NCBI GenBank assembly: GCA_965178125.1
Contig: OZ237763.1
Coordinates: 186,001 to 250,000, forward strand
Origin: Bilabrum cf. latius
Lineage: Eukaryota
Direction of reading: 5' to 3'
Length of the DNA: 64,000 nt
In this document: piece by piece, positions 12,001 to 36,200 of the stretch
Layout: every line of letters begins with the position of its first letter
Numbering within the stretch: position 1 is the first letter of the stretch
Notes under the pieces: model-generated
The model's input: the letters and a program-made list of their open reading frames with translations, nothing else
Told to the model about the DNA's origin: nothing
Databases searched by the model: none
Made by a program: the position numbers and the translations under genes

Positions 12001-12414
12001 CAAGTGCCCGACCTGGCTTCCTGGGAGCTCTTCCGAAATGCGTACGGTGACATGGCGCAGCATGTCGCCTAGCTGCGGGCCGAGAATTCGAGCTTGAAGA
12101 AGGACGCCGCCGGTGCGGAGACCGTCATGTCGGCTCGAAGTGGAGCCATGGGCGGCACTAATGCGTCCGGTGGGAATGTTCGGGTGCGCAACCCTCTGTC
12201 TCAGCGCAAGAGGCGCACCGCATTTGGGCCTCAGTCGTCCTCTGGCAACCCCGGAGATGAGTCAGGATCGGTTGCTGCTGCTGCAGCTGCCGGGAAGCCG
12301 ACTGCTTCGAGCTTGAAGGGTCTGAGGCGGGGATCCAGGCGTGGGTCGAAGCGAGCACTGATGGCCACTTCGCCGTCGAGTGGTGGCGACGCTGCCTTGG
12401 ATGGCTCCTCGTGA
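1..12414 (+). CDS. Giant multidomain surface membrane protein, 5'-partial, at least 4137 aa: F-type lectin, Kelch, sushi, FN3, ConA/LamG-like, cadherin repeats, IPT/TIG repeats, Cys-rich region, multi-pass TM C-terminus
   Basis: Ten ORF-track fragments lie in one frame, joined by 9 TAGs (1147, 1537, 2398, 4366, 6541, 7276, 7753, 9874, 12070); the first other stop is TGA at 12412-12414. Motifs: Kelch MFLFGG/LVLFGG; FN3 LIPGLSPDTSYRFDVAA; cadherin LDYE, DVNEPP, DVNDAP; repeated IPT 'TxGGxxVTIxGxNFG'; multiple hydrophobic helices after about 10410. Confidence 0.9.
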
Positions 12415-13103: not shown

Positions 13104-15233
13104 TCACCCAAGGCCCCGCGGTTGACCGAAACCTACACCTGCATGCCCTGCGAGCACGCCAGCTGGCCCACTGCGAGGGATGCCTGCAAATGCCTAGTCG
13201 GCGGAAGGCTGGACCTGCGCGAACATTGACTTGGCTTGCTGGAGCAGCTGGGGCTCCCTACGCTTCAAGTTGCTGTTAAACCTGTTCTTGACAGCGTTGT
13301 CCGTCCTGCCATTCAGCATCGGGTGTCGAGCAATCTCCGCCCACCGATTGCCGTGGACCTGGCGCAGAGCAACGATTGCAGCGTCTTCTTCTGGCGTCCA
13401 TGGCCCGGTCCGAATGTTAGGATCGAGATGATGGTGCCACCGCTCGCGACATTGCTTCGCAGCACGGCCTTTAATCTGAGCCGCGATGTCCCTCCAATTC
13501 CTCGCGCCTCGATCCGCTACCAATCGCCGCAGCAAGGCATCTTCATCAGCAGACCACGAGCCTCGCGCCGAAGCGGCAGCGTGTCCACCTCCTCCCCGTC
13601 GAGATGGTGGTTCATAGTCTCCGTCAGTATCAGGCGAGTCGTGGTCGCGGGACGACTCCTCGTCTAGCCACACAGACGAGCCAGATGCTTGCGAGATGCG
13701 GCGCGAGCGAACGGTAGCAGCCTAGCCTGGCACGCGCCCAGTGCTGCTCAGCTGCAAAGGCGTGCTGCTAGACGCAGAGGCTTTCGAGCTGATGCTAGCA
13801 AGTTGCTTCTGTTGCTCCCTAGCTGCGTAGCCCATTGAGGCCGACTGATGCTGCTGGCTTCCTTGCTGCTGTGCTCTCCCGGACACGATTGGGAAATCAA
13901 GCGGTGTACCAGTCCCTCCGAGTCCTCCAGATTCACCATTGCTATGCAGGGGCATATTTGAGCGGCTTGCAGCTTGAAGTGACTGTCCACCCGGAGCAGA
14001 GGTGCCTCCTAGAAGCCTCGTCCCGAACGCCGACTGGTGGAACCGAGCTTGTGGCAATCCTCCTCCACCGAACCTAAACCCCTGGGAAGTGCCAGGCATT
14101 TGCGCGTATCCTCCAGGGTACCCACTTCCCTGGATCGGCATCTGCCCACCTTGTCCGAATGGTTGTATCCCGCGCCTCGAAAATTCAGCGTATGCCGCAG
14201 AGCCAGCCAAGCTTGGCATGGGCAGCCTCATGCCGCCCCTATGCCCCATCCACGGCATCCCCGGTACTAAGGAGGGACTAGGAAGGCCTGGTACCTATAG
14301 TTGCTGCTGTTGTTGCTTCTGCAGCATGGCTTCTCGCTCTACCATGGCTCGGATCGCTGCTTGGGGGTGCAGCAAGCCGGTGGGGTCCAATCCGAGCGCT
14401 CCACCCAATCCAGGAGCCCTACCCTAGCTCAATCCACCGAAGGTTTGAAAGGAATCACCTTGCATGCTCCTTTCGGTTGAAGCACCTGGTCCCACTGCGC
14501 CAAAACCACCGGATTGTCTGACATCTGTCAGTCGCCAATCAGCCGAAGGGGCGAGTCCACCATTGCTTTCACGGTGAAGCAATAACTCACTCGCTGCACT
14601 TGGACTGACTGAAGCGAGTTGCTGTAGGCCAGATATCTATGTGGAGGCTTGTGCTTCGCTAGAAGTGGAGGCTTGGGCTGCCTGCTCTGACACGCTTCCA
14701 GCAACTTCGGCGGACCCTGCGCTTTCGTTGGAAGACACTGCATCCGCGATGTCCTCGGTAGTATGCGTAGATTCGAGGTGAGACCGACGTTGCTTCGGAT
14801 GTGCGTGAGCCGCTGCAGGTGCATTGCTTGTCTATTGCTTGTCGTTGAGTCGCACCCCCGACGATCCCTGCCTACCCTCATCTAGCTTCCTTCCCGCGCT
14901 ATCCACGCGGGCTCGCTTACGGAATGGCTCGCCACTACCCTTTGTAGATGCATTGTGACCACGCGCACTCGATTGCTCGACAGCGCCACTGCCTGTTGTT
15001 GCAAATCCTCGAAACGATTGACCTTCCTGTTGGGCCGTGTAACCTTCCCGCATCGCACCGTTTCTTTGCACGCTTTGCGATCCATCAGGCTGTTGTGATT
15101 GTTGAATCTTCTTTCTTCTGTATTCGCAAAGTGCATCTTTCAGCACAGCATGAAGCTCGCGTTCGGCTACTCCCCACTCGCGCGCTGAAGCTCCCGTCGC
15201 TGCCTCCACAAGTGCAACGTCTTGACCATTCAT
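13104..15233 (-). CDS. R2R3-type Myb transcription factor with long low-complexity N-terminus (about 709 aa)
   Basis: Two Myb repeats (RGSWSADED...WRDIA...KQCRERWHHHL; GPWTPEED...GNRWAEIA...GRTDNAVKNRFN). One frame runs through TAGs at 14832, 14637, 14424, 14295, 13722 and 13194 to TGA at 13104. The start ATG at 15233 is inferred. Confidence 0.8.
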
Positions 15234-16843
15234 GGTGGAATTCCCCCTTAACACGGATACTGGAAAAGAGAAAGGGCGTATCCCTGCGAACATTAGAGTG
15301 AACAACAATGAGTTCGGTGCCGCGTCGCGATGTTGTCGGCATCGCCGAGCGACGAGGATGAACGAGCGAACCTAGCCCGGGGGCCATGATCATGCAAGCG
15401 AGCAGCGTTCGCTTCCAGGTCGCAACTCCACCGGTCACCCCTCCCGCCAAACATCTTGGAGCTTGATTAATACACGCATGATCGGCTACAGCTGCTCTGA
15501 ACTTCCGGGAGTTCTCCGGAGTATTGACAGTGCAGTCTCGGTCGGCCCTAACTGATCATGCAGAGCCATGCAACCAAGGAATAGTACAACAAGACTGGCA
15601 AGACTTATTGCTACAGCAAAATTTGTCAATCGAGATTGCCGGCACCAACGCGATTAGTGTCGTTTGCTGTCGCCTGCTCCAGACTGCTGCTGAACCAAAA
15701 CAACACCACCGTAGTCTGGTCCACTAGCCCAGAGAGCACGCACGCAAAACTTGTCGTTAGGGTACAATTAATCTCAAAATGGATGTTTTGACTCATGATA
15801 CACCAACACGTAGCTCAGTCTAGCCATTGCGGCGATAGGCGCATGCGGCCCTGACAGAATTAATCCTATCCAACGAAAAACTTGAGGCAGCCAACAATGA
15901 TGGGAAAGCTCTCTCGAAAGATAATTAACGGGTCTTGTATTTCCGCCATGAATACTATGTCGCCGAGGACATTCAAACGAGTTTCGATCGGTCAACATCC
16001 TATCAGAGCAGCAACACGGCGGGCACAACATGCACTATTGAGACACCTGAAGCTGTAGGAACGCTTTGATTTTAGCAACACAGATAAGAACTCGTCACGC
16101 ATAGTGAATTCTCACCGTTGTCTGTACTACTGGTGCTCTCAACCGTGGCTAAACGGTATCGGCTCAGCGATTGGTAGACGGTCAGGCGTATGTGGGGATG
16201 CTTTTAGTAGCACCAGGGTGTTGTTCGCGTCGTTTTAACGGGAAACTGGGAACGTTTCGTTTGTTGGGAATCGATGGGTATGGTGCTGCCAGCCCGGCCG
16301 ACACCTGGCCAACCGCCGCGCAATTCGGTTCCGCACACCAACCTTCAGAACAGTCGTGGCAAGGCGGTCATACAAGTACCCCGTTGTGCAGCACGTTTCA
16401 GGCATGGCTTTGCGGAAATGATTTCGGTTTCGCTGGACAAGTGTGCTGGGCACAACCGCTACAAGCCACGCAAGACTCCGCAGAGGTTTTCTTGCAATCC
16501 GGATGTGACGCTTGAACTGCGACCTTACGGCAACATGACAGAATCACCTGCATGTCGGTTGCGCAGTACGTTACCAGGACATCAACACTGGCACCACATG
16601 GCAGCGCTAAAGCACCGCTGGATAGCCCCGGCGGGTGCCGAGCCGGCATCATTGTCGAGCAGGCTCCCCTGACGAGGGAAACAAGGGCAGGCATTCACTC
16701 GCATCAAGCTGGCCAGACTCAGAGACTGTTCGCTGTTTTCTGATCCCAACCAGCTGCGCTGACTGGAAGCGCCGTGCCATGTAGGAGATGTTACACCGCG
16801 GTTGAGCGCGCGTTATTATGTTGTAATTTGACGAGCGGGCATG

Positions 16844-16891
16844 CCCTTCCGCATCCTGCCCCTTCCGCATCCTGCCCCTTCCGCATCCTGC
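16844..16891. repeat. Tandem repeat, 3 x 16 bp (CCCTTCCGCATCCTGC)
   Basis: Three perfect adjacent copies read directly from the sequence. Confidence 0.9.
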
Positions 16892-17165
16892 CACTAGCAG
16901 CATGTCCGATCGAAACCCGGAAGAACATATCGCCGGCTCCGGCAGGAACGCCGGTCGCACATTGTTTCAGCATCTTGCAAGTATCACGTGCAGCACAAGC
17001 GTGCACTAGTGGGTACCCATGCAACTTCGTATCTGATTATCGGAGCGGCATTGCTGAGTGCGCCTGTAGGCCTGACTGCAGTTCAAGGGGATCGCGGCCA
17101 TTGCGGGCGGTGCTTATCTACTCGACTTTGTCCGGTCGAAGGTACATATTCAGCACAGTATTCAA

Positions 17166-19946
17166 ATGCGACGGGTCGCAATGGTGCGGTCTGTGTTCAG
17201 GGCTTGTGCATCGTCGGCGGGGAGGTTTGCCAGTAGTGCGGCACCTAGCCGAATCTCGCCGTCATCTCTGCTAAATATGAAGCGCAAGGGCTCTAAAATA
17301 GTAACATGCACAGCATATGACTATAGCGGTGGTATTGCATCGGTACTTGGTGGTGTTGATGTAGTTTTGGTTGGTGATTCCTGCGAGCAAGTGGTCCACG
17401 GACGCAAGTCAACTGCAAGCATCACCATGGAGCTCATGCTTGCGCATTGCGCAGCTGTCCGACGAGGAATTTCAAAAGGTGTAAAACTAGTAGAACATAA
17501 TGGAGCGGCGACCAAGCAGCCACTCCTGGTCGTGGACATTCCGCTGCTCGCTTCCACTTCCGACGACGCGGCCTTGGACGCCGCCACGAGGCTCGCAGCA
17601 GCCGGGGCGGGTGCGGTCAAGATAGAAGGGGGGGCCTCCAGGGCCCAAAGAATAGCAAGCATCACCCGCGAGGGCATCTCGGTGATGGGCCATGTCGGTC
17701 TCCTGCCGCAGACCGCCGAGACGTCCTCGGCGGGGGGCTACGGCGTCCGGGGCGCCAGCTCGCGCGCAGCTCTCGGTGTGATGAGTGATGCGGCGGCCGT
17801 ACACGCCGCGGGAGCCTTCGGAATAGTGCTCGAGATGGTCCCCGACGAGGTGGCCGCTGCAGTGTCCTGCACCCTGCCCGTGCCCACCATCGGGATCGGG
17901 GCGGGGCCGGGCACCGACGGTCAGGTCCTCGTCCTGCACGACCTCGCCGGCATGCTGCCGGGCAAGCCCCCGAGCTTCGCGAAATCCTACGGAAGCGCGC
18001 TGCACGAGATGTAGAAGGGGGTTGGGAGGTATGCTGCGGAAGTGCGCGCCGGCGTGTTCCCTGGCCCCGGCTTCGGGAGGCCCCTGCGGCCCAGGGCGAG
18101 GCAGGCAGTGCAGAGAGCCTGGGAGGAGGGGGCAGTGGCGCGGGCCATGGAGGCCGGGCGGCGCATGGGAGCGGCAGCGAGGACAGCTTGGGAGCCGAAC
18201 GATGAGATGAGTGTGGAGGTTGACCTCCCGAGCTTCGACTCTGTGATGGAGCAGCGGTTGCCGGTTACCATCACAGAGGGCGCTGCAGGAGCCGCGGCTT
18301 AGGTGGTGCGGGGGACACAGGAACCTGATGGGGGGCTCGAGGACGGGGGGCAGCCGGACGTTCGTGCGTTTAAGTCGCTGAAGGACGCAGCGGCGGCAGC
18401 CGAGCAGGTGCATCGCATTGCGGTGGTCGGCGCAGGCGCCCTGGGCACCGCCGTGGCCCGTGCCCTGTCGTTGTCTCCAGCAGGGCACGACTCCGTGGTG
18501 CTGGTGGGCAGGGACGGGACGGTGCTGGGTGCAGCTGAGTCGAAATCCACCCGTGGATCCTCAGGCTAGGGCTTGCCAAGTGTTCCTGCTGCAGACCTGG
18601 TCGTGATGTGCACCAAATCGCACGACGCAGGCGCGGCGGGTGCTCGGGCCGCACAGATGGTGAGGCCGGGCGGCGCGATAATGGTGCTTAGCAACGGGAT
18701 AGGAGCGGCAGAATCGGTGGCGCGGGAGGTGCAGGGCACAATGCAGGCCGATGGGGAGGGTGGTGGGAGGGATCCAACGGGGAAAGCAGGAACCGTCGAG
18801 TCAGGTGCGGCTGCAAGGGCAGGGGCAAGTGCTTGGGCAGAGGCAGAGGCAGAGGCAGAAGCAGAGGCAGGGGCAAGGGCAGGGGCAGTGGGCCCAACGG
18901 TGCTGCAGGGCATCGTCACGCTGGGTGCCAAATGGGCGGAACCAGTAGTGGAGGGCGGGGAGAAGGGTGCAGGGCAGTGCCTACAGGGGTCGAGGCGGGT
19001 GGAGGTGACTGCAGGTGGGGGCATCGTGGTGGGCCCGGTTGACGGGCGGCTGGGGAACTGTTTCAGGTAGGGTCAAGAAGGGAGAGAGGTGAAGAACGAG
19101 GGAGAGATGAAGAACGAGGCCCGGGCGTGGAGCAGGCGTGCTTCGGCCGTGTTTGCTGCCGCTGGGCTGGGCGGGTTGGAGGTCACCAAAGGGGATAGGC
19201 CTGGGGGCTGGCTGTCAGACCCCGAGGCGACCGCACGCTCCAGGGTGGTCAAAGTGGCGGTGAATTGCCTCGTGAACGGGCTGGCCTCTTTGCTGCGCCC
19301 GGGTGCCACCAACGGTGACGTGCTGCCTGCGCTCGAGGAGGCCATCAGTTCCCTGTCCGTGGGCGGGGGCCAGGGAACACAGGGGTTGGGGTTGCGAGTG
19401 GGAAAGGATGGTTCCGGGAATGGACAGCCGGTCGATGGGGTACACTGGCATGGGGCGTCGCCCGTGGGGGCCGCAGCGCGCGCAGTGGCCCTTGAGCTGG
19501 GGCGTCTGGTGCTCTGCTTGGAGAGCCGGGGCTGGCACCTGGCAGGGCCCGTGGAATCTGCTGGCAGGGCAGGAGCGGGTAATGCCGTGCTCTCCGGAGG
19601 CCTGTACGGGGGCGGAGGTGATGGAGGCGGGGTGGGTAGCAGCAGTAGGTGCGGTCCCCGGTGGTCTCGTGTCAGCGACCCTCTTGCTGACGAGCGACAG
19701 GCGGTCCGTCTGCTGGAGGCAGCGGCCTCTGTGGCGCGGGGCACCTGCTCCAACGTTTGCTCGCTCGCACAAGACTTGCAGGCTGGCAGGCGCACGGAGG
19801 CAGAGGCGTACCTGGGCTGGGCGTGGGAGCAGTGCCGGCTGGAGGGGATCGAGGCACCGGGCATCGCGACTATTCTGGCGAGGACTCGATCGTTGGATGA
19901 GCACTACGGGGTGGGGGGCGCGGCACAGCACGGTGGGCGCGTCTGA
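17166..19946 (+). CDS. panB-panE: Fused ketopantoate hydroxymethyltransferase (PanB) and ketopantoate reductase (PanE), probable mitochondrial presequence (about 926 aa)
   Basis: PanB motifs: TAYDY, LVGDS, VKIEGG, GHVGLLPQ, TIGIGAG, DGQVLVLHD, and YAAEVRAGVFP after the TAG at 18012. PanE motifs: IAVVGAGALG, CTKSHD, LSNGIG, KVAVNCLVN, SLAQDLQAGRRTE. One frame with TAGs at 18012, 18300, 18567 and 19068; ends at TGA. The start could instead be 17181. Confidence 0.88.
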
Positions 19947-20230
19947 TTAATTGTTGCTGAGCATTAGAGTCGGCTGTGGGCTGCATGAGCTGCTGCATAG
20001 GCCCGCTAGTCTACCAACTCGCTCAGCTTTTGTTGAAATTGATCGCAACAAAGATTATTACGGATTCGGCCACAGTCCTTCGAAATATGGCACTTTGCGA
20101 CACAGTTGGCCTGACCAGTCGTAGTATTTCCGTTAGTTTCATATCTGTAACCATATATTAATAGATAGAAGCCAGGCGCGTTCGCGCACCCCGGATAAAG
20201 GCAGGTTCGAGGCCAGCTAGTTTCGCTGCG

Positions 20231-23200
20231 ATGGATGCGCCATTTGAAGGCGATGGAGTTGGGGCAAGCGAGTCGAAAGTAGCCATGGAGTACGATGGGT
20301 ACGATGGATACGATGGAGAGGGTATGGGGGAGATGGGTGAGGGCGGCGAACAGCTATATGATGATGAGATGCAAGCCGCGGAGTAGGAGGGGGACGCAGC
20401 CGGTAACCATTGGGTCGTGATTCGGGCGTACTTTGAAGAGAGGGGCCTCGTGATGCAGCAATTGGAGTCATTTAATCGTTTTTTGACCTACGGAATCCAG
20501 GAGATCGTGGATGATACTGCACCGATGTCGATTCGGCCTCGTGAGAACTACCTGCCTGGCGCTCGTCCCGTGGACCAGCGCTACGAGATCGGGTTCGGGA
20601 ACGTTATACTTTCGCTTCCCAAGTACGAAGACGAAGTGACCGACCAGTCTCAGAACGTGCATCCGAACGAGGCCCGCCTCCGCAACCTGACGTATGAGAG
20701 CTACGTGCACGTGCAGGTCAAGTGGACCGCCTTCAACAACGCCACTGGGGCCCAGGTGGGCGAGGAGGAGATGAGCGAGGAGCTCTTTGGCAGGGTGCCA
20801 ATCATGGTCAGGAGTAGGAACTGCCACTTGGATGGCCTCAACGACAAGGCCCGCACGCAGCTGGGCGAGTGCAAGTTCGACCAGGGGGGCTACTTCATCA
20901 TCAACGGGAGGGAAAAGGTCATCATCGCGCAGGAGAGACAGGCCTACAACAGGATCTACGCCTTCCACAAGAGAGAACCCTCCAAGATCGAGTGGTCCGT
21001 GGAGGTGAGGTCCATGACGGAGAATGTCAACCGGCCCCTGACGGCCTTCGACCTGCTCATGTACCGCCGGTCCACCAGCAAGCAGGTGCTCGAGGGGCAC
21101 CAGGTCAGGGCGAGGATACCCACCCTGCGGGCCCCCATCCCCGTGGTCATCTTGTTCAGGGCTCTCGGAGTCACCAACAGCGACAAGCGGATCCTGCAGC
21201 ACGTGGTGTACGACTTCAGCGACACGGAGATGCTCGAGAGGTTCAGGCCCTCGCTGGATGAGGCGCGGCCCATCCGGGACACGGACGCCGCAAGGGCCTT
21301 CATCGGGAGCAGGGCGTCGGCTGAGGCGGTTCGGCGGGAGGAGCGGGTCAGGTTTGCGGTGGACTGCCTCCAGAAGAACTTCGTGCCCCACGTCGGGGTG
21401 GACCCAAGCAGCGCGTGCCGCACCCGCAAGGCATTCTACCTCGGGTACATGACGCACAAGCTGCTGCAGTGTTCCCTGGGCCGCAGAGGGGAGGACGACA
21501 GGGACCATTTCGGTAACAAGCGGATGGACATGGCGGGGCCCATGATCGGCGGCCTCTTCAGGCAGCTCTTCTACAACGTGTACAAGGACATGAGGACCTA
21601 CCTGCAGAAGTCCATGGACAGGGGTAGGCAGCTCAACATCCCCCTGAGCATCAAGCACCAGACCATCAGCGGGGGTCTCAAGTACAGCCTGGCCACGGGC
21701 AACTGGGGCGTGCGGGGCGGCACCGTCAGCAAGACGGGCGTCTCCCAGATCCTCGAGAGGCTGACGTACGCGTCCACGCTCAGCCACTTGCGGCGCCTCA
21801 ACACCCCGCTGGGCCGCGAGGGCAAGCAGGCCACGCCCCGCATGCTTCACAACACGCACTGGGGCATGGTGTGCCCCTGCGAGACGCCCGAGGGCAGCAG
21901 CGTGGGCCTTGTCAAGAACCTCTCCCTCATGGCCCACGTGTCGGTGGGCTGCAGCCCCAAGTCGGTGCTGTCTCTGCTGGCCGAGAGCGGCATGCTGCTG
22001 CTGGATGACTGCTCCCCCTCCCACATCTCGTACGCCACCAAGGTCTTCGTCAACGGCAACTGGGTGGGATACATCCCCGAGGACGCCGAGCCCAAGAAGG
22101 TCGCGGAGAGCATCCGGGACCTCAGGCGGCAGCAGGTGCTGGAGCCGGAGGTGAGCGTGTTCAGGGACATCGGGGACCAGGAGCTGCACGTCTTCACCGA
22201 CGCGGGACGCACCTGCCGCCCCTTGTACATCGTCGACCCGCTGGACGAGGACGAGGACGGAGGGCTCGGCGCCGACGGGATGGACGGGATGGTGTACGAC
22301 GACGACGGGAACCTGGTGGCCGGTGCAGGGGGAGGCGCGGGTGGGGAGGGGAAGCGGGGCGAGGAGGAGGAAGGGGTGCGGCGACAGCGCCTTCGCATCA
22401 CGCAGGCGCACGTGAACAAGCTGGTGCAGCTGGAGGGGGTCGCTTCGCAGCTGACGCAGATCGAGGACAGCGCAGACACGCACGAGGAGCTGCAGCGGCT
22501 GGGCATCACGGAGGAAGACATTAGTAGCGCCTCGAGGCGGTTTACGTGGCTGATGAACGAGGCGGTGATCGAGTACATGGACACACTGGAGGAGGAGGGG
22601 GCCATGATCGCCATGTTCCCCTCCGAGCTGGAGGAGGGAAAGACCACCACCTACACGCACTGCGAGATCCACCCGTCCATGATCCTGGGGATCTGCGGGT
22701 CCATCATCCCATTCCCAGACCACAACCAGTCGCCCCGCAACACCTACCAGAGCGCCATGGGCAAGCAGGCCATGGGCCTGTACGCGAGCAACTTTCTGCT
22801 GCGGATGGACACGATGGCCAACTGCCTGTACTACCCGCAGAAGCCTCTGGTGGGCACCAAGGGCATGGAGCCCATGGCGTACAAGCAGCTGCCTGCAGGC
22901 ACCAATGCCATCGTGGGCATCCTGTGCTACACCGGCTACAACCAGGAAGATTCCCTCATGTTCAACCAGTCCTCCGTGGACCGCGGGCTCTTCAGGTCCA
23001 TCTACTACCGGTCCTACACAGCCGCCGAGGAGGAGGTGCCTCTGTCTGCCACCGAGGAGCAGGCCGCCGCGGGCCCCACCCCGAACGAGAAGCCCTGGAA
23101 GCTGATCGAGAAGCCCAGCCGGGGCACGGCCGGGCTCAAGCAGGACAACTATGACGCGCTGGACGAGGACGGGCTCATCGCGCCGGGGGTGGCTGTGTCC

Positions 23201-24385
23201 GGCGGCGACGTCATCATCGGGATGACTCAGACGGTGGCCGACTCGGACCTGCCCGGGTCGCAGGCCCGTGGGATCAACCGCAAGGACGAGAGCGTGATGC
23301 TGCGGCAGACGGAACGGGGCGTGGTGGATCAGGTGCTGCTGACCACGGGCCCTAGCGGGCAGCGCTTCACCAAGGTGCGGATCCGCAAGGTGAGGTACCC
23401 GCAGCTTGGCGACAAGTTCGCCTCGAGGCACGGGCAGAAGGGGACGATGGGCATGCTGTACAGGCAGGAGGACATGCCCTTCACGCGCAACGGCATCACG
23501 CCGGACATCATCATGAACCCACACGCAGTGCCCTCCCGCATGACCATCGGGCACATCGTGGAGTGCCTCATGGGCAAGCTGCTGACCATGCTGGGCTACG
23601 AGGGTGACGCCACGCCCTTCGCCAGCAGCGACCTTTTCTCCGTGGACAAGGTCAGCGACGCGCTGCACGATAGGGGCTTCCAGAGGAACGGCCTGGAGAC
23701 GCTCTACTGCGGGCACACGGGCCGGGCCCTGGAGGTGCCCATCTTCATCGGGCCCACGTACTACCAGCGGCTCAAGCACATGGTCGACGACAAGATCCAC
23801 TCGAGGGCGAGGGGGCCCACGGCCCTGCTCACCAGGCAGCCCCTCGAGGGCAGGTCCAGGGGGGGAGGCCTGCGGTTCGGAGAGATGGAGCGCGACTGTA
23901 TCCTGTCCCACGGGTCTGCCGCCCTGCTGCAGGAGCGCATGTTCATCAACAGCGACGCTTTCAGGGTGCACGTCTGCGAGTCGTGCGGGCTATTCGCGCA
24001 GGCCGACCTCAAGCAGCAGTACTTCGAATGCAAGGCCTGCGGGAGCAACAAGATCGCCCAGATCCGCATCCCGTACGCCTGCAAGCTGCTCTTCTAGGAG
24101 CTCATGGCCATGCAGATCGCAGTCCGGATGTTCACGGACGAGCGCACCAAGGCGGACGAGCCCGCGCCGGTGCCTGGTGCCATCATCGAGAGCGGCGACC
24201 CGCTGGCGGCTGCAGCGGGTGGTGCAGCTGCCGCGGATGCCGGTGGAGAAGTGCCCGCCGGGACACCGCAGCCGGGAGCGGACATTGCCATGGGCTTGGA
24301 GGGTGCCGCCCTCATGGAAGACGGCGATGCCGCGGGCGGAGACTTGGGCCACGAGGACCTGCTGGCCGGCGAGATGGCGACCTGA
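20231..24385 (+). CDS. RPB2: DNA-directed RNA polymerase II second largest subunit
   Basis: Motifs GGYFIING, DDRDHFGNKR, GDKFASRHGQKG, RLKHMVDDKIHSR, GLRFGEMERD, PYACKLLF[TAG]ELMAM. TAGs at 20384 and 24095; TGA at 24383. Start is ATG 20231 or 20285. Confidence 0.97.
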
Positions 24386-24585
24386 ATTGCTTAGAGCAGG
24401 TGAATTCGAACGGTTAGCTTGATGAATTGCCGCCAGACGTTTTCGGGCATCAATCGGATCGTGCTGCAGCTGGGTCCCCCGCTCGTCCTCCTAATATTGC
24501 GCACATGGGGCACAGCAGGCAGCACTCAAATCGTTGAAATAGAACGTTAGAGGTAGAATCACACACAATTTTTACTTTCATCGTT

Positions 24586-26802
24586 TCATCCCCGCGCCAT
24601 GGCAAGGGTCTCGCACATGATGCTAGGGTTGTACCGAGTTGTCATTTCCACCAGCCCGGAGTGGGACGTGTACACGATCCGCCCAATACCTATCTGATTC
24701 AGCGCTCTGGTGCACATGCGGCACGGGATAGCCGTGTCGTACCCAATGCCTAGCTGGTCCAGCTCGCAAATCATCATTTCAGCACCGCGCGCATCCTCAA
24801 TGTCCTTGAGCTGGGAGATGCAGTGGATCTCCGCGTGCATGATTTTGGAGTTGTTGCCCATTCGCAGCATTCCCATGTCTTCCTTCCGAAACGGCAGACC
24901 GCGCTTCCACCGGTAGCTCTCGCCCTCGGGAAGCACGCCGGGCACAGCCCACCGCTGGTATGGCGCTCCCCGCCGCAGAATTTTCCCGAAGTCAACGGCA
25001 GGCGCCTCCTTACCCGCCCCGCGAGCTTGTCCCCCCGCCTTGTCCTCCTGTCCGGCATCCCTATCGGCTCCGCCCTTCCCCCCCTCATCGTCCTGCTCCC
25101 TAGGACCCCCCGCGAAATCGTCCCCCACATCGTAGTCCCCCCCCAGTCCGGGGGCCAGCTTGGACCCGATGCCCAGGGACCGCCACAGCCGGCGCATAGC
25201 GCGGGGAAAAGGGTTGAAGCGGTGGTTGAAGCCCACTGAGCAGCACGCCAGCGGAGTCGCGAGGGGGGCAGGGGCTGGGTCGCTACCCGGGCCCTATCCC
25301 CCTGACGCGGTGGACGACGAAGAGGGCTCCAGTGAAGATGAAGATGCAGATGCAGCTGCATCCTTCTAGGACTGCTTTGCCCCACCCTGCGCTGCAGTAC
25401 CCTTGCCCTCGTCCTCGCCCTCGCCCTCGCCCTTCTCCTCCTTCCTGGGCGCCACACGGAGCACGGCCCCGTGCTTGGAGCCTCGCTGGTCACCCGCCGA
25501 GGCAGCAGCAGCGGCGGCCACCAGACAGGCCTTGTCGTCCGCGTCCCTGGGCAGGAGCATGGACTCGATGGACCCGGGCGGAGGGGGCCCCCGCATTGAG
25601 GACAGCCAGTCGGGCGCGGAGGATGCGAAGCGGGGCGCGCTGGCTGCCTCGCCCCTGAGAGATGCCAGGCCCATGAGGTCGGGCGGGGCCGAGGTGGCAC
25701 AGCCCGGGTCTGGGGGACACCATGAGGACGAGGGCGAGGATGAGGACGATGATGGTGGTTGGTCGGCTGCAGAGCCGGTGCTTGCAGCAGCAGCAGTTGC
25801 AGTGGAGGACTACGACCCTGTGACCCCCGATGGAGCTCCTTGCTACTGCGACTGGGCCTACAGCTCTGCTGTATCCACAGCGACTTGGTACTTGTAGCAG
25901 TCCTCGCTGCCTGGGAGGGCTGCAGGTGCGGGTGGGTCTCTTGCAGCAGCTGCAGCAGACGCCCCCTCCCCCTCCCCCTTGCGCCCCGTGCCGAGGGCCC
26001 GCGCAGTACCATCCGCCAGCATGCCGCCGCCCATCGCGCGGCCGCCAGCGAGCATCCACGAACGTTCCTTCGCCACCGCAGCGGCAGCCGCTGAGGGCAG
26101 GCCGGGCACCTCGGCCCATTCCACCGCCCCTGCTCGCGCCAGCCTGAGCAGAAACACGGGCTGCGCCACCTCCCACAGCCGGCCAGCCAGGAGTGCGCCC
26201 GACGCAAGCCCGTCCTGGACCGCCCCTCGAGCAGCCGCCGCATCGCCCACCTGCAGCGCAGCGTGGGCTAGCAGCAGGTGAGACTTGGCGTTCAGCTGGA
26301 TGCCCAGCACACCCGCGCATCGATAGACCCACTGCACGGCTGCCTACCAGCTGGCCCGCGCCCTGCTGCCCGAGGCCGCCAATTCCCTAGGAGCCTCGGG
26401 CCCGGACTGGGACGGCTGTGTGCTGGGGGCCGGCGGCGGTACCGATTCAACGGCTGCTATCAGTTGCTTGGCCCACGCGCTTGCGTTCGACTTTGCCACG
26501 CGCATGCGCTCCTGCTCGTCTCTGAAGTCCGCGGCGGCGCTCCTCGGCCGCTTGGAGCCGATGGCAGAACCGTCGGCACATGCGTCTTCCGAGGCCGCAG
26601 CCGAGCTAGTAGTCGTGTCAACTGATTCAGTGACGCCTGAGCTAGCGCTACCGGACGTTCGTGCTCGCTTGGGGGCGGATGCACCGGTTGCCGCACTGGC
26701 CCGAGCTAGCCCGGCCCAGTCCGCAGGGACCGCTCCGAGGCAACGCTCAACGCAAGACTGTATCACGGAAGCGCTATGCCGCTCGAACTATTCTGCTGTC
26801 AT
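24586..26802 (-). CDS. Zinc-dependent cytidine/dCMP-deaminase-family protein with TPR-like N-terminal helices (about 738 aa)
   Basis: Motifs KHGAVL...GFNH...HAEIHCI...PCRMC...GIGRIVYT. One frame from ATG 26802 through TAGs at 26788, 26344, 25858, 25843, 25810, 25366 and 25294 to TGA at 24586. Confidence 0.8.
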
Positions 26803-27287
26803 TTTTTGTCGGCTTGCTAGGACTCCGGCGGTCATGGCGAGGGCGAACCAATCCACTGCAACAATGGCTTGCAACATTTCGTTGTAATCTTCAACATCTA
26901 CGGGCTTCTTGCACACCACACGGCAACGAAATAGGTCAACTGCTGCGCGCCACTGCATCTGGGACATGAGAATCGTGAGGCGATTTCGCAGCTGCTTGCG
27001 CTTCTTTGCGGCTTGGCTCTAGTTCTGGCGTCTGGCGGCGGCGTCGACGTCTGGCCAACCGGCTGGGCATGGCGGTAGTTCGGCAATTCCAGCGGAGGCA
27101 GCCATCGAAAACTCTAGAAATAGTCCCAACCAGACGCGTGCTCGAGCGCGGTGCAGGTCTGGTGCTCGAGGTTGGGCACGGCTCTGGCAGCTACAGTGCG
27201 GTGCATTAGTGCGGTATCGTTGTTCTATTGCCGGAAATTGACGGTGAGACTACGACAAAAAGAACTTCATATGCCGAAGCAAGCATT

Positions 27288-30200
27288 TCACTGCTGCTGC
27301 CCGGCCAGCTTGTCGGCTAGCCCCTTCACGTCCTTGCCCGCCGCGCTGTCCTTGATGATCTGCGCGATGAGCTGCACCTTGCGGCCCTCGTCAATGGCTT
27401 CCAGCCCAAGGATCCGCTCAATCTCCACCTTCACCTCGGGCTTGTTGGCCACCATCCGCAGCTCGTTCGGAGGCTCGGCCGGGGGGCCACCGGGAGCGCC
27501 TGGAGCAGGCGCCATGGGGGCGGCACCCGGGGGGGGCTGCGGGGGCGCCACGGGGGCGGGCGGCATCCCGGGGGCCTGCCCCTGCATGGGGGGCATGGCA
27601 CTGCCAGCACTGGGCATGGGTGCATTTGCGCCGGGGAGGGCACCCGGGGGCGCGCCCACTGCACCCTGGGGCACGGCTGCCCCGTTGCTGACGGGGGGGG
27701 TACCCCCGGCTACTCTGGCCATCTTGGCGGCGGGGCCGGCGTTGGAAGCTCCCGGGCCCATGGCAGCGGAAGCGGAGCGCTTCATACCCGCCGCCATCGC
27801 GGGCAGCTGCCCCGCGGCACCGGCAGCCGCCCCGACCACGCCCCCGGGTGCCGCCCCGCTGCCACCGGGCGGGGCCATCCCGCCGGCCACCGCCTGGGAG
27901 GGAGGCAGCTGGCCCCCGGCCGATGCCCGCCCGGCCCCAGCCCCAGCCCCAGCCCCGTGCGAGGAGGAGGACGCTGCATGGGCCTGCTGCAGCCCCCTGC
28001 TGCTCCTCTCGGCCATGGACCGGGACTGGGAGGCGATCGAGGTGAGGTGCAGCACGTACGGCGCGTTGGGCCTAAAGTACTCCACCTTGCGGAGCTTGGC
28101 AGCGGACCTATCCAGGTCCTTGGCCTTGAGTGCCAGGGTGGAGGGGGGGTCCAGGGCGGGGTCCGGCCTCTGGCTCGCGTCCTGGTTGATGGCGTCCACC
28201 AGGTGCTGGTGCATAGGCGGGGCACGACGGTTGTGGGCCGTGGCCCGCCGGACGGCAGCCTGTGCCTCGTCCTCCGCTGCAGCCGCGACGGCCCGGGCGG
28301 CGGACCCGTACGACTGGTGTAGGGTCATGACGCCCGCCCTGGGGTCTGCGTCGATGACCACGGGCAGCTGGGGCAGCCACCCCATCGCCTTGTTGACCCG
28401 GTGCTGCACCAGGGTGGCAGGGTACCTGTGCGTGGAGCTGGCCAGGGCAGAGGCCACCGCGGCGGCAGGCGGCATGGGCGCCACTGCGTCTCCTGGCAGC
28501 TGCATGGTGGCCTGCTCTGCGAGCTGGGCCTCGACGTGCGCCAGGGCGGGGCGGTCCAGGGACGCCCGAGCAGATGAAGAGGAAGAAGAGGAGGACGAAG
28601 ACGAGGAGGAGGACGCGCCGGCCCCCATTCCGGAAGCACGCGCTCCCTGCCTCGCTGCTGCCATCGCCGCTGCATCGGCCACCCGCCCCGCCTGCGTGGG
28701 GATGGCCAGCCCCACCAGCCCGTGCTCCTCGTCCCTCTCCCTCTCCCTCTCGCCCACCGAGGAACCGCCCGACGAGGCAGTCTCCGCCTCGGACCCGGTG
28801 GCCGTGGCTTCTTCCCGTGCAACACCCCCCTGCCCTTGCCCGTGGCTTGCCCCCAGCACCCGAGCGATGGTCCGCCGGGAGCCCCTCGCCCGCAGCACGG
28901 CACGCACAGCCAGACCCACGATCCTGTCCACGTCCTCGCCCGTCCGCAGCTCCGGAGCAACCGCATCCGAGGCCTTGCTGGCCGAGGCATCTCCCGCCCG
29001 GTGCTGCTCTTCTGCCTCCTCCTCCTCCTCCTCTTCTTCTTCGGCGGCAGCCTTCCGGCCGCGTCCGCGGCCCCCCTTGGCCTTGCTACCTCTCGGGGTG
29101 CGGCCGCGACCGCGCCCTCGGCCTCCAGTGGCCGGCGCCTGCTCCTCGTCCTCGTCCTCGTCGTCGGCGCTCCCGTCCGCAGACGAGCCAGACGCGGCCC
29201 CGCGGCCCCTCCCCCTGCGCTTGGCAGGGGTGGACTTGGCGCCGGCGGCGGTCCGCCTGCGCTTGGCACCGCGCTTCTCGCCCTCTTCCACAAGCCCCCC
29301 TTCGTGCTGTTCCTCCCCCTCCCCATCCCCCTCCCCCTCCTCGCCTGGACCAGCGCCCGCGCTGCCTACGGCAGGTCGCACGCCCGCGCGCCTGCTCGCC
29401 AGCCCCATCCCGCCTCCCACTCGCACAGCAGCTCCCGCAGCCGCCGCCGCGCCAAGCTGTTCCCTGCGGGCCAACATGGAGGCCCCAAGGAGAGCGGAGG
29501 AGGCAGAGGCAGTGGCAGCGGCCTCGGGCACGGGCAGCCGCGCCAGGGCCAGCCCGCCGAGGCCCTCTCTGAAGCCGGAGCCCACCTAGGAGGCAAGGGC
29601 CCTGGCGCGGCCCACCAGCCGCTGCACCTGCAGGGCGTGCAGGCGGCCGGCCACCAGCTTGCGGTGCCTGTCGTAGCACTGCCTGTTGTTGCGGTGCCTG
29701 TTCCTCGACTTGATCTCGGGGTGCTTCCTGAGCGTGTCCCGGATCACGTCCCAGTGAGAGCCCAGCTCGTCCACGGTGCGCTCCAGCAGCTCCTCCTCCC
29801 AGTCGTGCCACGCGCCCGAGTACCGGTTGGCCTTGGCGCGCTCCCGCTCCTGCACCGCCCGCTCCCTCCGCTGCACGTCCTCCTCCAGCCAACGCCACGC
29901 GGGAGCCTCCGGGCCCTCCACCTGGTGGGGCTTGCCGCCTAGGGCAGCTGCAACACCCGCCGCCCGCGCCGCCACCCCGGTGGCCACGTCCAGGCCGGCC
30001 AGCAGCCGACGGGAGCCAGCCACGGGGCGGGGGCACAGCTCGTCCGCGGCGGCCTGCGCCGCCACCGCCGCGGCCGCGCTCCCCCGGCCGCCCAGCTGCG
30101 AGGATGCAGCCGACCCCGCCGGGTCACCGCCCGCCGCGGCCGCCCCCTGCGCCGCCCCGCGGGGGTGCCCTCCCGCCAGCAGCGACCTCTGCATGACAGC

Positions 30201-33200
30201 CGCGGCCACCGCAGCCGCCCTCCTCTCCGTGCGCCTCCTGAGCAGCCGCTTCGCCCCCGCGTGCCTGTTGGACGGGTCCAGCTGCATGGGCGCGAGGCTG
30301 GTGACCCTCGACTCCTGGGAGCCCCGCTGCACTGCCTGCCGCTCCAGGTAGGACAGCAGCAGCCGGAGGGCCCCGCACAGGGCGCTGTCGCCCGTGGTGG
30401 CCACAGACTGCGTAACGGTGAGCGACATGGGGTGCGGGGGCCCGAAAGTCTTGGCGAAGTGCAGCACGCCCGCGTCCTGCGCGGCGGCGATGGCCTCCTG
30501 GGCGGCATCGGCCGGTGAGCCAGCGGCGCCGAGCGCTGCGGCTGGGTACATGAGCTGAGCCGAGGCCTGCAGACGGGTGCGGGCGGCCTCGCCGGAGGCT
30601 CCCAGGTACAGCCAGGGGGACTTGGTGAGCATGGTGCGTCGCCTGAGTGCCAGCTGGGGCTGCAGCGGGGCGGGGAACATTAGGGCATGTGCGGCCATCC
30701 AGCCGGCAGGCTGCGCGGCGGGTGAGGACACCCACAGCCGGCGGGCTTCTCCCTCTTGTCCCTCGCCGGACGCCCCCTTGTGGCTGCCAGGGGCACCCGC
30801 TCCAGAGAGCATGCCAGCACCTGCCTCGGCGGCCGCCGGGAGCGCGCCTAGAGTAGGCCCCGCCCCGCTGCAGGATGCCGCCATGGGGGCCGCCGCGAGG
30901 CTCAGAGGCATGTTGCCCTCCCCACCGCCGGCCCCCGCCGCCTCGGCCACGCCAGTGGGCACGGCCCTGCGCCAGCTGACCCGGAGCACGTGCGCGATGG
31001 CCCCGCGAGGCACGCGAGCGACGGCACTGCCCTCCGCCGCCCCTGATCCAGACCTCGACGACGAGGCCGCCCCGCCTCGGCCCCTGCCCCGTCCACGGCC
31101 CCTGCCTCGGCCGCCCCTCCCGCCCCGCTTGCTGGGCTTGCTGCCCGAGGCCGACCCTCCGCCATCGGCGCCAGTGCTGGGTGCCCCACCGGCCGCGAAC
31201 TGTGCCAGCAGAGGGGCCAGCACGGCCAGCATGCCCGCGCCAGCGCACTTTGCAGCCCCCGCTGCTTTCATGGCCTCCTTGGCACGGGCATTGGCAGCTG
31301 CTGCGGCCCTCGCCGCTCCCAGCGCCTGCCCTACTGCCTAAGATCCGGCCCGGACGGCAGCATGGGCGGCCACTGCACAGGGCAGCAGGAGAGCCCCGGC
31401 ACTGGAGCCGACCCCCTTGCTGCTGCCGGTCTTCTTTCTGCTGGCACCCGCGCCGCCACCGCTGCCTGCTCCCCGCTTGCTGCTCCCCGCGGCCCCGCTG
31501 CGGCCCCTCCTGCCCTTGGCCTTGCCCCGCGCTCCGCCCGCCGCCTCGGCCTCGTGCCCCTCCTGCCTAGAGGCAGCCTCGCCGCTGCCGCTCGCCTGCA
31601 GCCCCTCCCTGGCCTCCTTGACGGCCTACAGCCGCGCCCCAGCGGCCTCGAGGGCCAGCGCGCGCGCGTCCGCACGGGCCCGCTCCGCCAGCACCCGGGC
31701 CGATGCAGCCTCCCCTGCAGCCTGCCTTGCGGCATCGCCCGCCGCCCCGCCGACGGACCCGCTCTGCAGCCTCAGCCGCACGGGCCCCGCCCAGCTGCAG
31801 GCCTGTCTCACCGCCGTGGCCTCGTACCACGTCCGCAGCTGCCGAGCCGGCACCGCGCCGCCCCCAGGCCGCACCGCTTCAGCAAGCAGGGCATCGTACC
31901 GGGAGGGAGCGAGGGCAGCCAGGGCCAGCAGCTGGCCCCCACCACCGCCAGAGCTGCTGCTAGAGGACCCCATGCCCAGGGATCCGCCGATGCTGCCAAA
32001 CCCGCGGCTGCTGCTGCTGCTCGAGTCCTAGCCCCCCGCGCCTACGGGAGCCGCACACACGCCAGAAGCAAACCTCCGCACGTCAACGGACCGAAGCAGC
32101 GAGGCCGTCAGCCCGATCAGCATGCCGTCCAGCCCGCGGGTCAGCCGCAGCACAGGCTCCCGCGGGAGAATCTCCCGGCCCGTCTGCTGACCCCCTCCCC
32201 CGGCTACTCCAGACCCAGAGGCCAGGGCACTCGCGGGCCCGCCCGGCGCTCCCGTGGCCCCGATGCCCCTCCCGTTCTGCATGAGAGGTCCCTGGGCCAC
32301 GGCCTGCGCCAGCGAGCCTCGCACTGCCCTGGCAGCCGCCCTCAGAACCCCTTCCTCCACGGAGCCCTCGGTGGCCAGCTGCAGCACCTGCAGGCCCCTA
32401 CCCTCGGCACCAGCGGAGGCCATCCTTGCAAGCAGCTGCCGAAGGGCCGTGGCCGCCCTCGCGTCCAAGAAGGCGTCCAGGAGCACCACCACGTCCGCGC
32501 CCGCTGGCACGGGGCCCTCTTGGTTGAGGTCACCCGGGGAGGCAGCCTCTCCCAGGTTGCCCCACCCCTGCGCGGACAGGTCCAGCGAGGCCATCACGGC
32601 CGCTGCCTCGGGCTCGTGCACGCCCACCACTGTCATCAGGCCCACGCCGCACCGCGCGTCGGCGTTGAAGCGAGCCACCCGCGCGGGGCTCGGCACACCG
32701 TGCCTGGGCATCCACGAAGGAACCCCTCCGCCCTCCGCGGCACCTGCGCCTGCACCCGCCTCGACCCCAGCCCCATCGTGTTCGTGCTCGTGCTCGTCCA
32801 GCACCAGCAGAGGTCGCCCCGCCGCGGCGCACACGGCCCTTGCCGCCTCCGCCGTGTGCGGCGCCGAGGCCAGCAGAAGCACCCTGCGGCCCGCCTGCCT
32901 CGACTCCCGCAGGAGTGCGTCGAGGACCTGCAGCTTGCCGGACCGCTGCAGCAGCGTGGACAGACGCAGGCTGACGGGCCGACGGGCAGGCACCGGGGCG
33001 TGTCCCTCGGCCAGCGCCACCTCTTCCAGGGCAGCGGCAGCCGATGGCAGCGGCCCCTGGGCCTGGTCCTGCCTCATCGAGCTTGGGCTCGTGCTTGGGC
33101 TCGTGCTCGCGATGCTCCTGCTGCTGCCCTCCTCCAGCACGGCGCGAGCCAGGAGACCAGCCTGCGGGCGGGCGCATCCGGCATCCCCCGCCGCCGATAG

Positions 33201-36200
33201 GTCGGCCGGGGCCCCCGCGAGCAGCGCCCGGACGGCGGCGTAGGCCCGCCTCCGGGCGGGGGCGCCCAGCACGGGCTCGGGCAGGCCCAGCTGCCTGAAG
33301 CCCAGCCCAGCGAGGGAGAGAGACTCAGCGGGGCGGCGCGCGAGGCGGGGCAGCCGACCCGATCCCGCCGCCAGTGCCAGGGCACACGAGGCCCCCGCGG
33401 CGCCGGGAGTGTTCCCAGCCGCGGCGGCCATGGGCAGAGAGGGCAGCACGCACCGCAGCGGCAGTCCCTCCGCCTCGGGAGGCAGCTCCCACGTGAAGGG
33501 ACCCTTCGCCCTCACCTGCATCCCCTGTTCTTCGCCGTCATCCCCGTCGTCCTGCATCGCGGCAGAACCCCCAGCCAAAGGCACCGCCCTCTCCTCCCCA
33601 CCGGCCACCCATCCGGCTGACAGCGCCAGTGCGGCGCTCCCCAGCCAGTCCCCGCCCTCGTATGCCGCCCCGTCCCCATGCCCCGCCAGCGCCCGCAACC
33701 GGTCCGCAAGCCCACTGCCCCCCTCCCCTTCCTCCTCCCCGTACCCCCCTCCCAGGCCCAGCAGCCTCATGGAGAGACCCCTCTCCTGCGGGCCCCCGCG
33801 GAACGCAAGCCCGCCCACACGTGGCATGTCTCGGCCCGCCGCGGTCCCCGCCTCCAGTTCGAGGTCGTCCAGGAACAGTACGGGGCCAGAGGACGGGGAC
33901 GAAAATGACGAGAGAGAAGCTGACGGGCCGGTGGCCGCCGCCTGTGCCAGCATCGAGTGCCCCAGCACCACCGAGGTCGAGCTGGCCAGCCGCAGGTGCC
34001 GCGCGTGCTCAGACTCCCGCGATCCATCCTCCACATCGCCGTCCTACATGGCGGCAGAGGCAGAGGCAGGGGCAGGGGCAGAAGCGGAGCCTCCGCTGCC
34101 CCGGCCTCCCTTGGACCGGCCACCAGCAGACGAAGCAGAAGCGCCTCCCCTCTCTCCCTTGCCCACCCTCCTGGGCTCAGCCACCTCCCAGCGCTGGCCC
34201 CGGGCCCAGCCCCAGGCCCACGCATCCAGCCCCTCCGCCCCGATCGAGGCCTCCAGCACGGCGGCGCCGGAGCCGAGGCCCAGACCCACCGCCACCCGCG
34301 TCCGCACGAGCCCCAGCACGCCCGCCCGCTGCAGCGCCACCTCTCTGTACCTGGACCCCGCGCCCACCAGGGCCGAGGGCCGCCCAGGCACAGGGGAGGA
34401 CCTGCCCACCTCGGCGGGTCTGCCCGCCAGCTGCTGCGGGGGCGCCAGAGCCGCGTCGTTGCCGTCTCCCGGCACCGCGTCTGCGTGCTGCGCGGCGGCG
34501 TGCAGCTGGGCCAGGAGCCGCAGCAGCTGGGCCGGGGACCCGTCCTGCATCGAGGCGGCGGCCAGTGCGGACGCGGTCGAGTTGGACTGCAGCAGCCTGG
34601 CCCGGGCCGCCTGCTGCACGGCCGTCTGGGGGCAGGCCACGGCTGCCATGGCCACGAAGGGGAGCTGCTGCTGCACGCCCTCGTCGCACACCTGCCGCCG
34701 CAGCACCAGGGGGAGCACGGAGTCGCGCAGCCGCTGGCCCCCTGCATCCCCGGCCTGCGCCAGCCTCTCCTCGGGAGTGAGCACTGCGTCCGCCACGGCT
34801 GAGGCGGGCATCCCGGGGACGCTCTTGCCCGCCCCCGCCATGGGGACCTGCGCCGCAGCGGACGCCGAGGAGGACGAGGAGGAGCCCCCCTCCTTCGCAC
34901 CCGGGATGCTCTTGCCCCCCATGGAGGGCACCGCAGCAGCCGCCGCAGCGGCCACCGCCGCCTTCTTGGCAGCGGCCGCCACGACGGACGTCTCCGTCAG
35001 CGTGCGGAGCACCCTGGGAGCGAGGTACATGGCCATCTGGCTGGCAAGAGTTGGGCTCGTGGGCAGCAGCCGGTTGGTCACCAGCAGCCTGGTGAAAGAG
35101 GGCACCTTGGCAAGCACCTCCCAGGGCAAGGGGGCCCACGGCTCCACCAGGCGCTGCTCCAAAGCCTCCTGGGCAGAGCCGAAGCACGCGTCCTAGTCCG
35201 ACGGGAGGGCCCCCCGGTCCATTGATGCATCCCCCGAGTCCTCCTTGGACTCCTCCCCGTCCCCAGCAGCAGACAAAGAGGAGCCGTCCGCGGCGACCGC
35301 CTTCTGGTCCTGCTGCGGCATGCCGCCCACGTGCGTGCCCGCCAGCACCACCCCGCCCAGGGTCGCATCCGTCACCACGAGCCTCCACTGCCTCCCCTGC
35401 ACCCACTCCCTCACCGCCCCCTGCCCCAGGCTGCCAGCCGTGCACAGCACGATCCGGAGCACGCCAGCCCCGCGCCGCCCCCTGCCGCTCGACCTGGGCC
35501 TCTTCTGGCCCTCCCCCTCCAGCCCCATCTCCCGCTGGGCCCACGTCACCTCGGCCCCGGGGAGCCAACGCAGCACCTCGCAGCGCCAGCGCCAGGCGGT
35601 CGCCGCGGGGCACACCACAAGCACGCCCTCGCCCACCCAGGCGGGCCCGGGCAGCAGCACCCGCCCGCCCCCCGACTCCGCCCGCGTGCCCCCGTCCCTC
35701 CCCAGCAGGGCCCCCAGCGCGGGACCCCTCAGCATGGCGGCCAGGGCCAGGGCCACCGCCCGCTTGCCCACCCCCCTCTCGTCCCCCAGCACCGCGGGGA
35801 GGCCCCTGCGCACAACGGCCGCTAGCCACCGGAGACCGGCCAGCTGCACGGGCCGCAGCTGCGACCGCATCACGGAGGGCAGGGAGGCGGCCAGGGCGCG
35901 CGCGAACACACGCCCCTCCGCCGCCGCCGCCTCGGCGGGCCGCACCGGCCTGGGCCACCCTGGGAGCAGTCGGTACTGCCCTAGCTTGGGGGCGGGTGAC
36001 AGCGCCGACTCAGTGGGGGGGAGGTAGGGGAGGGCCCCCTCGCCCAGCACAGCAGCGGTGGCTGCACCCGCCTGCGCCTGCATGGCGTCCATGGAAAGTC
36101 GTGACCAGGGAACACAGTCCGACACGGGCTCGGGCAGGTCGAAGGCGTGCTGCCCCGTGGGCAGGACCTGCAGGGGCACCTGCCCGGGGAGGTCCTGCGC

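Follow-up and report, generated by a model that had tools for sequence, protein, structure and literature searches.

Few nuclear genetic codes treat UAG differently from UAA; the examples named in the excerpts of PMC11687900 are Iotanema, Scotinosphaera, one rhizarian and a small number of ciliates. In the fornicate Iotanema spirale, UAG encodes glutamine (Gln), whilst UAA and UGA are stop codons (PMC5304391). The same meaning of UAG, as in NCBI translation table 15, is found in the phyllopharyngean ciliates Hartmannula sinica and Trochilia petrani and in Protocruzia (PMC11687900). Decoupled UAG has also been assigned to leucine (Leu) in the rhizarian exLh, to serine (Ser) in Scotinosphaera and to glutamic acid (Glu) in the ciliate PL0344, in which UAA encodes lysine (Lys); within the phyllopharyngean ciliates it became Leu and, twice, Gln, and in Protocruzia Gln (PMC11687900; PMC5304391). 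In codes of the table 6 type, UAA and UAG (UAR) both encode Gln, as in many ciliates, Ulvophyceae, Hexamita, Streblomastix and Amoeboaphelidium (PMC11687900; PMC2984419). The subject of this analysis is a stretch of 64,000 nucleotides (nt) of a contig assembled under the name Bilabrum cf. latius (OZ237763.1, positions 186,001 to 250,000 of the forward strand), hereafter called the window, and in particular its gene for RPB2, a subunit of RNA polymerase II (Pol II), which contains in-frame TAG codons. The evidence indicates, with a probability of roughly 0.85, that UAG has changed from a stop to a sense codon throughout this genome, most probably for Gln, and that UGA is the working stop codon. 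The code of the window works like table 15 but differs from the described cases in lineage, in guanine-plus-cytosine (GC) content and in its UGA terminator.

The identity of the RPB2 gene is clear. A phmmer search of solved structures matched its product to Pol II RPB2 chains with E=0 and ~1309 bits, whilst RPC2, RPA2 and archaeal Rpo2 scored 686, 390 and 813 bits, respectively; hence, similarity over the full length is higher to RPB2 than to the Pol I, Pol III and archaeal paralogues. The alignments span residues 82-692 and 795-1324 of the query, the latter segment corresponding to residues 729-1249 of a chain of 1251. The CxxC...CxxC cluster of the RPB2 C terminus is present (CESCGLFAQADLKQQYFECKACG...PYACKLLF[TAG]ELMAM), and its four Cys presumably bind zinc. 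Positions 24080-24115 read TGC AAG CTG CTC TTC TAG GAG CTC ATG GCC ATG CAG, and the TAG in this segment, called the anchor TAG below, does interrupt the conserved motif in frame, as the original prediction had it. Under the standard code, the open reading frame (ORF) covers 20387-24097, i.e., 1236 codons, and ends at the anchor TAG. When TAG is read through, the frame extends over 20162-24385 and ends at a TGA.

In the structure search, TAG was translated as X to keep the query from biasing the aligned residue. The X was found opposite the Q of LLFQELMAM in all five RPB2 chains among the matches listed, and the alignment continues for 12-18 residues beyond it, through ELMAMQIAVRMF, to within 2-4 residues of the ends of the chains. 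Thus, the frame downstream of the TAG encodes conserved protein and is not open by chance, and termination at the TAG would delete the end of the protein, which is conserved among eukaryotes; this had been predicted as well, as ELMAMQIAVRMF matches the last residues of solved RPB2 chains. At the other end of the gene, a transcript-like contig begins at 20105, and the first ATG downstream of this position, whichever frame is considered, is that at 20231, which is in frame with RPB2. The next in-frame ATG after the TAG at 20384 is at 20453, inside the region conserved with solved RPB2, which starts at query residue 82. Hence, with TAGs at 20384 and 24095, a reading of RPB2 under the standard code would cut into conserved sequence at the N terminus as well as at the C terminus.

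The prediction that the anchor TAG stands for Gln rather than Leu, tyrosine, Glu or tryptophan (Trp) was supported by alignment to other RPB2 sequences. The column is Q in 120/120 homologues retrieved by a word-indexed search (116 scored by regular expression and four read from the printed sequence). An independent full HMMER search was run against 1.84 billion cluster representatives; of its 150 best sequences, 130 extend over the column, with Q in 122, H in 4, F in 2, D in 1 and M in 1. None of E, L, Y, W and K occurs at this position in the 120 homologues or in the 130 representatives. A single TAG site does not fix the residue by itself. As most TAGs are located at poorly conserved sites, a search was made for TAGs in strongly conserved proteins, and this search yielded PP4c, the catalytic subunit of protein phosphatase 4.

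The PP4c gene consists of two exons separated by a predicted intron at approximately 58373-58710 on the plus strand (GTGAGT...CAG), and exon 1 contains an in-frame TAG. The best 120 homologues of exon 2 were collected; the great majority of them are 85-91% identical to it, whilst the first five rows show 61-79%. Most are named protein phosphatase 4 catalytic subunit, and a few have other or generic names. In the 94 homologues with an alignable N terminus, the TAG column contains Q (85 sequences), M (5) or W (4), but never E, K or R; in the paralogue PP2Ac of humans, the position is occupied by W. The TAGs of RPB2 and PP4c are the only two sites examined that are located in strongly conserved columns, and both point to Gln, which is very probably the residue inserted. 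Leu, Ser and Glu, the residues used in exLh, Scotinosphaera and PL0344, respectively, are absent from both columns. Both sites are suitable for confirmation at the peptide level, by LLFQELMAMQIAVR of RPB2 and DLDEQIER of PP4c.

The distribution of stop triplets over the window indicates that these TAGs are not isolated. Over 15 coding segments totalling 16,836 codons, 58 TAGs and no internal TGA occur in the coding frame; TAA is likewise absent from it, a count that depends on homology showing these ORFs, which were called with TAA and TGA as stops, to be complete. The other two frames of the same segments contain 61 and 70 TAGs, 23 and 27 TAAs, and 313 and 219 TGAs. Thus, TAG acts as any other triplet of the coding frame, whilst TAA and TGA are excluded from it. 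At least one TAG is present in 12 of the 13 genes of the window. When TAG is read through, fragmentary ORFs join into long genes that can be clearly identified, and homology was found on both sides of a TAG in RPB2, PanB, squalene epoxidase (SQLE), RME-8 and PP4c. Annotation with the standard code would truncate or split 12 of the 13 genes, including the essential RPB2 and PP4c.

All 14 ORF ends are TGA; as one of these lies at an intron boundary, the real ends number 13. An ambiguous UAG, serving as a sense codon but also terminating translation at some gene ends, appears very improbable. A terminal TAG in front of a chance open stretch would indeed be hidden when ORFs are called with read-through, long chance ORFs are common in GC-rich DNA, and the number of ends is only 13. 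However, these ends are TGA without exception, and no ORF needs a TAG as its end. Moreover, the canonical C terminus ...DYFL of PP4c directly precedes the TGA, and in RPB2, the tail beyond the conserved end contains no TAG, and transcript contigs extend 70-165 nt beyond the TGA.

UAA was not seen as a terminator either (0/13 real ends in the GC-rich DNA of this window), and UAA and UAG usually change together (PMC5304391). Hence, a code of the table 6 type should be considered, in which UAA is also Gln but rare through GC bias. This is unlikely. If TAA followed the ratio of CAA to CAG (102:615, with 57 TAGs), ~9.5 in-frame TAAs would be expected, but none was observed in 16,795 codons, whereas the off-frames hold the numbers given above. 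Reading through TAA has little effect, as it only adds short extensions at the 5' side of two long ORFs; because of this, and because homology shows the ORFs to be complete, the lack of TAA carries weight. UAA presumably still terminates translation, although, being neither sense nor stop in this window, it may be effectively unassigned.

TAG accounts for 57 of the 774 Gln-type codons (7.4%). TAGs are most numerous in weakly biased genes (the Myb-domain gene, the deaminase-domain ORF and coiled-coil ORFs), and TAG behaves as a non-preferred codon. The strongest codon bias, with a GC content at third codon positions (GC3) of ~0.9, is found in PP4c exon 2 (58711-59484, plus strand) and in the gene for the proteasome beta subunit (62054-62662, minus strand), which contain no TAG and almost no CAA and are presumably highly expressed. 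No clear enrichment of Gln beside TAG sites was seen in the window, as judged by eye and uncounted.

A scan of metagenomes yielded 42 RPB2 loci, of which only one, L001, is close to the window. Its RPB2 is 83% identical over 815 columns and covers residues 32-838 of the query up to the end of the contig, short of the anchor column. The gene order PanE-then-RPB2 is common to the window and L001 (PanE at 65-913 in L001). In the window, PanE (ketopantoate reductase) is fused to PanB (ketopantoate hydroxymethyltransferase), and the fusion ORF is located directly upstream of RPB2. L001 contains two in-frame TAGs in RPB2, one of which is followed by 90 conserved residues, and one in PanE; the use of in-frame TAG is thus common to at least two taxa. 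Opposite the TAG at 20384 of the window, L001 has E or Q, depending on the placement of gaps. No in-frame TAG was seen inside the conserved RPB2 blocks of the remaining 41 loci. Their stops are located in alignment gaps (L007, L038 and L039) or past the C-terminal motif (L024), and one is a TGA (L015).

Contigs of four sequencing runs (X1, X5, X6 and X7) were placed on positions 12001-31000 of the window. X1 behaves as DNA, with a single contig of 22 kb crossing genes and spacers. In contrast, the contigs of X5, X6 and X7 start and stop at gene boundaries, and their depth varies from gene to gene. Contigs of X5 and X7 join 15282 to 16115, and the 832 bases skipped are bounded by CT..AC on the plus strand, i.e., GT..AG on the minus strand, which is the strand of the Myb gene. 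Because of this splice joint and the contig boundaries, X5 and X7 were taken as RNA. The intron at the 5' end of the Myb gene (15283-16114, minus strand, 832 nt) is the only one supported by reads in the 19 kb covered, and the joint is absent from X1.

The RPB2 gene is spanned by an X5 contig without differences from the window (Table 1), and the X6 contig at 22369-24519 and the X7 contig at 22412-24453 are identical to it as well; these contigs end at 24453-24550, 70-165 nt past the TGA. At both RPB2 TAGs, the placed contigs contain no alternative letter, gap or joint, and the anchor TAG is identical in contigs of the four runs, which stem from three studies. Hence, this copy of RPB2 appears to be transcribed, with UAG in the transcript; an unexpressed copy beside an intact paralogue, or a transcript lacking UAG, which the original prediction had named as grounds for its rejection, was not what the contigs showed. 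These data also bear on a purely local cause of the anchor TAG: this copy of RPB2 might be a pseudogene, the TAG might stem from an error in sequencing or assembly, or it might be passed by gene-specific programmed readthrough, edited or spliced out with a tiny intron. The scope of the analysis is the 64-kb window, and a second copy of RPB2 may exist elsewhere. However, the invariance of the TAG among runs, the strong codon bias of RPB2 (GC3 0.88) and its intact frame of 1384 codons, the spread of the 58 in-frame TAGs over 12 of the 13 genes, and the same habit in L001 make such a cause extremely improbable.

Runs X1-X7 contain near-identical sequence (0.79-1.00 of the words sampled from 22000-25000); they carry three organism labels and stem from three studies. 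The organism may be a culture associate or a contaminant of other organisms. At 25315-25948 and 29119-29752, the depth of all four placed runs peaks sharply, at up to 269, and many loose ends and false joints are present; both regions consist of low-complexity coding repeats with further copies in other parts of the genome or transcriptome.

Several observations weigh against the reassignment of UAG to Gln or against the evidence for it. Neither ARAGORN, searching for transfer RNA (tRNA) genes, nor Rfam found a match within the window. No run is on record as RNA, that status being a guess, and X5 and X7 were interpreted as RNA from the joint and the boundaries described above. As already mentioned, TAA was itself used to delimit the ORFs. 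In addition, the residues opposite other TAGs are often not Q. The TAG in PanB, which the alignment crosses, is opposite R in two solved PanB chains and Q in a third, and those in SQLE are opposite I and S of human SQLE, with the alignment continuing across them. The TAG in the C-terminal part of RME-8 is opposite E in 12, D in one and N in one of the 14 closest relatives, and opposite R in most animals. At the TAG in the N-terminal part, Q is found in P0122, the closest relative (61% identity), and in P0133, but other relatives have G, S or P, and most rows K. The TAGs of L001 are opposite R and opposite L or R of the window. The TAG in the cofilin gene was considered as well, but it falls outside the region aligned to the five solved chains listed and is thus uninformative.

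UAG encodes Glu in peritrich ciliates and Blastocrithidia. In the window, UAG might likewise be a sense codon throughout the genome but specify Glu or another polar residue, such as Lys or arginine. The E at the C-terminal RME-8 site, the K in most rows at the N-terminal one, the R in two of the three PanB chains and the R of the window opposite a TAG in RPB2 of L001 would all fit. However, the sites favoring E, K or R are all variable columns, and such sites are uninformative on the residue, whereas none of the three residues occurs at the conserved column of RPB2, in 120 homologues and 130 representatives, or among the 94 PP4c homologues. A polar residue other than Gln, chiefly Glu, is therefore improbable, and a meaning of Glu, Lys or arginine throughout the genome is no less so.

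The relationships of the organism were assessed from RPB2 and RME-8. In a maximum-likelihood tree of RPB2 (LG+G4; 32 rows, i.e., the window and 31 sequences hand-picked from 120 matches), the window is sister to Cafeteria and two further sequences, with a support of 99 in the SH-like approximate likelihood ratio test (SH-aLRT), and this group is located inside a set of 10 sequences; the branch of the window is long (0.63). Among the named rows of the RME-8 comparison, Cantina marsupialis has the best score and E-value, with full coverage and 38% identity, whilst Blastocystis shows 42% identity over 67% of the query and several animals 41-42% over ~73%. Among the closest relatives of RME-8 and PP4c, one partial record, belonging to the P0124 cluster, is assigned to Symbiodinium sp. 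KB8; Cantina marsupialis is more distant. The tree and the RME-8 matches, along with the high GC content and the paucity of introns, fit a bigyran stramenopile, and the organism is provisionally placed, on sequence comparisons, next to Cafeteria. The RPB2 of the window continues past the usual end of the protein in an acidic, Ala/Gly-rich extension (24134-24382, plus strand), and this part is also acidic in the sequences P0005, P0006 and P0020 of the Cafeteria clade and in the representative P0381.

The window is best explained as nuclear DNA of a GC-rich, intron-poor protist. On this reading, RPB2 is functional and expressed, the anchor TAG is one of its normal codons for Gln, and the ribosome continues to the TGA at 24383-24385. 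Decoding could be by a tRNA-Gln with anticodon CUA or by a near-cognate tRNA-Gln, and eRF1 would no longer recognize UAG. Such a mechanism has been proposed for other UAG-only codes (PMC5304391; PMC11687900).

Among the described codes, that of Iotanema resembles the window in that only UAG is reassigned, Gln was inferred from conserved Gln columns, and UAA is not a sense codon. However, Iotanema is a metamonad in which UAA is the predominant stop codon, whereas the window is stramenopile-like, with 13/13 UGA ends and a GC content of 57-75%. The phyllopharyngeans and Protocruzia share with the window that UAG alone became Gln and that most genes contain at least one UAG. In both, UAG is a minority codon for Gln, with a share of 18.5-31.8% in the ciliates as compared with 7.4% in the window, but those ciliates prefer UAA as a stop codon, whilst the lineage of the window is not a ciliate one and the stop codon seen is UGA. 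The table 6 codes resemble the window in the conversion of a stop codon to Gln with UGA as the remaining terminator, but UAA is a sense codon there, and in the window in-frame TAA falls short of its expected number.

No stramenopile is listed among the UAG-decoupled nuclear codes in the excerpts of PMC11687900 and PMC5304391, and a search of full-text literature, with most subscription journals outside it, yielded no description of an altered nuclear code in a stramenopile or bicosoecid; the case thus appears to be unpublished. With odds slightly short of even, it can tentatively be proposed that UAG alone became Gln in a Cafeteria-related, bigyran lineage comprising at least two taxa, with UGA as the sole terminator and UAA perhaps effectively unassigned, as the first change of a nuclear code in stramenopiles. 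A new, independent case in a GC-rich genome terminating at UGA would allow ideas on the origin of such codes to be tested, which is of value because all UAG=Gln cases in the available part of PMC11687900 prefer UAA as a stop codon.

Table 1. Features of the window, with positions counted from its first nucleotide.
Feature	Position	Strand	Remarks
Giant TIG/Kelch/cadherin/FN3 membrane protein ORF	1..12414	+	Open at window start; 9 in-frame TAG; TGA end
Myb-domain protein ORF	13104..15389	-	7 in-frame TAG; TGA end
PanB-PanE fusion ORF	17076..19946	+	4 in-frame TAG, one within PanB domain; TGA end
X5 transcript-like contig over RPB2	20105..24550	+	4446 nt; 0 differences, 0 gaps
RPB2 coding sequence	20231..24385	+	Intron-free; 1384 codons plus TGA; ORF when TAG is Gln; in-frame ATG at 20231
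Second in-frame RPB2 TAG	20384..20386	+	Variable N-terminal tail; 51 codons past first ATG
Anchor TAG in LLF-TAG-ELMAM	24095..24097	+	Codon 1312 of frame starting at 20162
RPB2 terminator TGA	24383..24385	+	After acidic Ala/Gly-rich C-terminal extension of ~80 residues
ORF with C-terminal cytidine/dCMP deaminase domain	24586..27390	-	9 in-frame TAG; TGA end
SNF2/HSA chromatin-remodeller-like ORF	27288..37505	-	3405 residues; 8 in-frame TAG; TGA end
RME-8 (DNAJC13)	41966..50739	-	Two ORFs, 41966-49078 and 48832-50739; one TAG each
Squalene epoxidase ORF	53239..55812	-	5 in-frame TAG, two within block aligned to human SQLE; TGA end
ADF/cofilin ORF	57146..57544	-	1 in-frame TAG; TGA end
PP4c exon 1	58199..58372	+	In-frame TAG at 58247-58249
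PP4c exon 2	58711..59484	+	Ends ...DYFL TGA; no TAG; 85-91% identity to most PP4c homologues
Proteasome beta subunit	62054..62662	-	No TAG

Two of the other genes deserve a short comment. The SNF2/HSA ORF is located in the most GC-rich part of the window (~75% GC) and consists mostly of Ala/Gly/Ser/Pro low-complexity sequence, with only short Pfam matches. The two ORFs of RME-8 overlap at 48832-49215 on the minus strand in different frames, and the positions of the Pfam matches leave ~29 residues for ~233 nt. An intron of roughly 150 nt is likely to be present within this segment.

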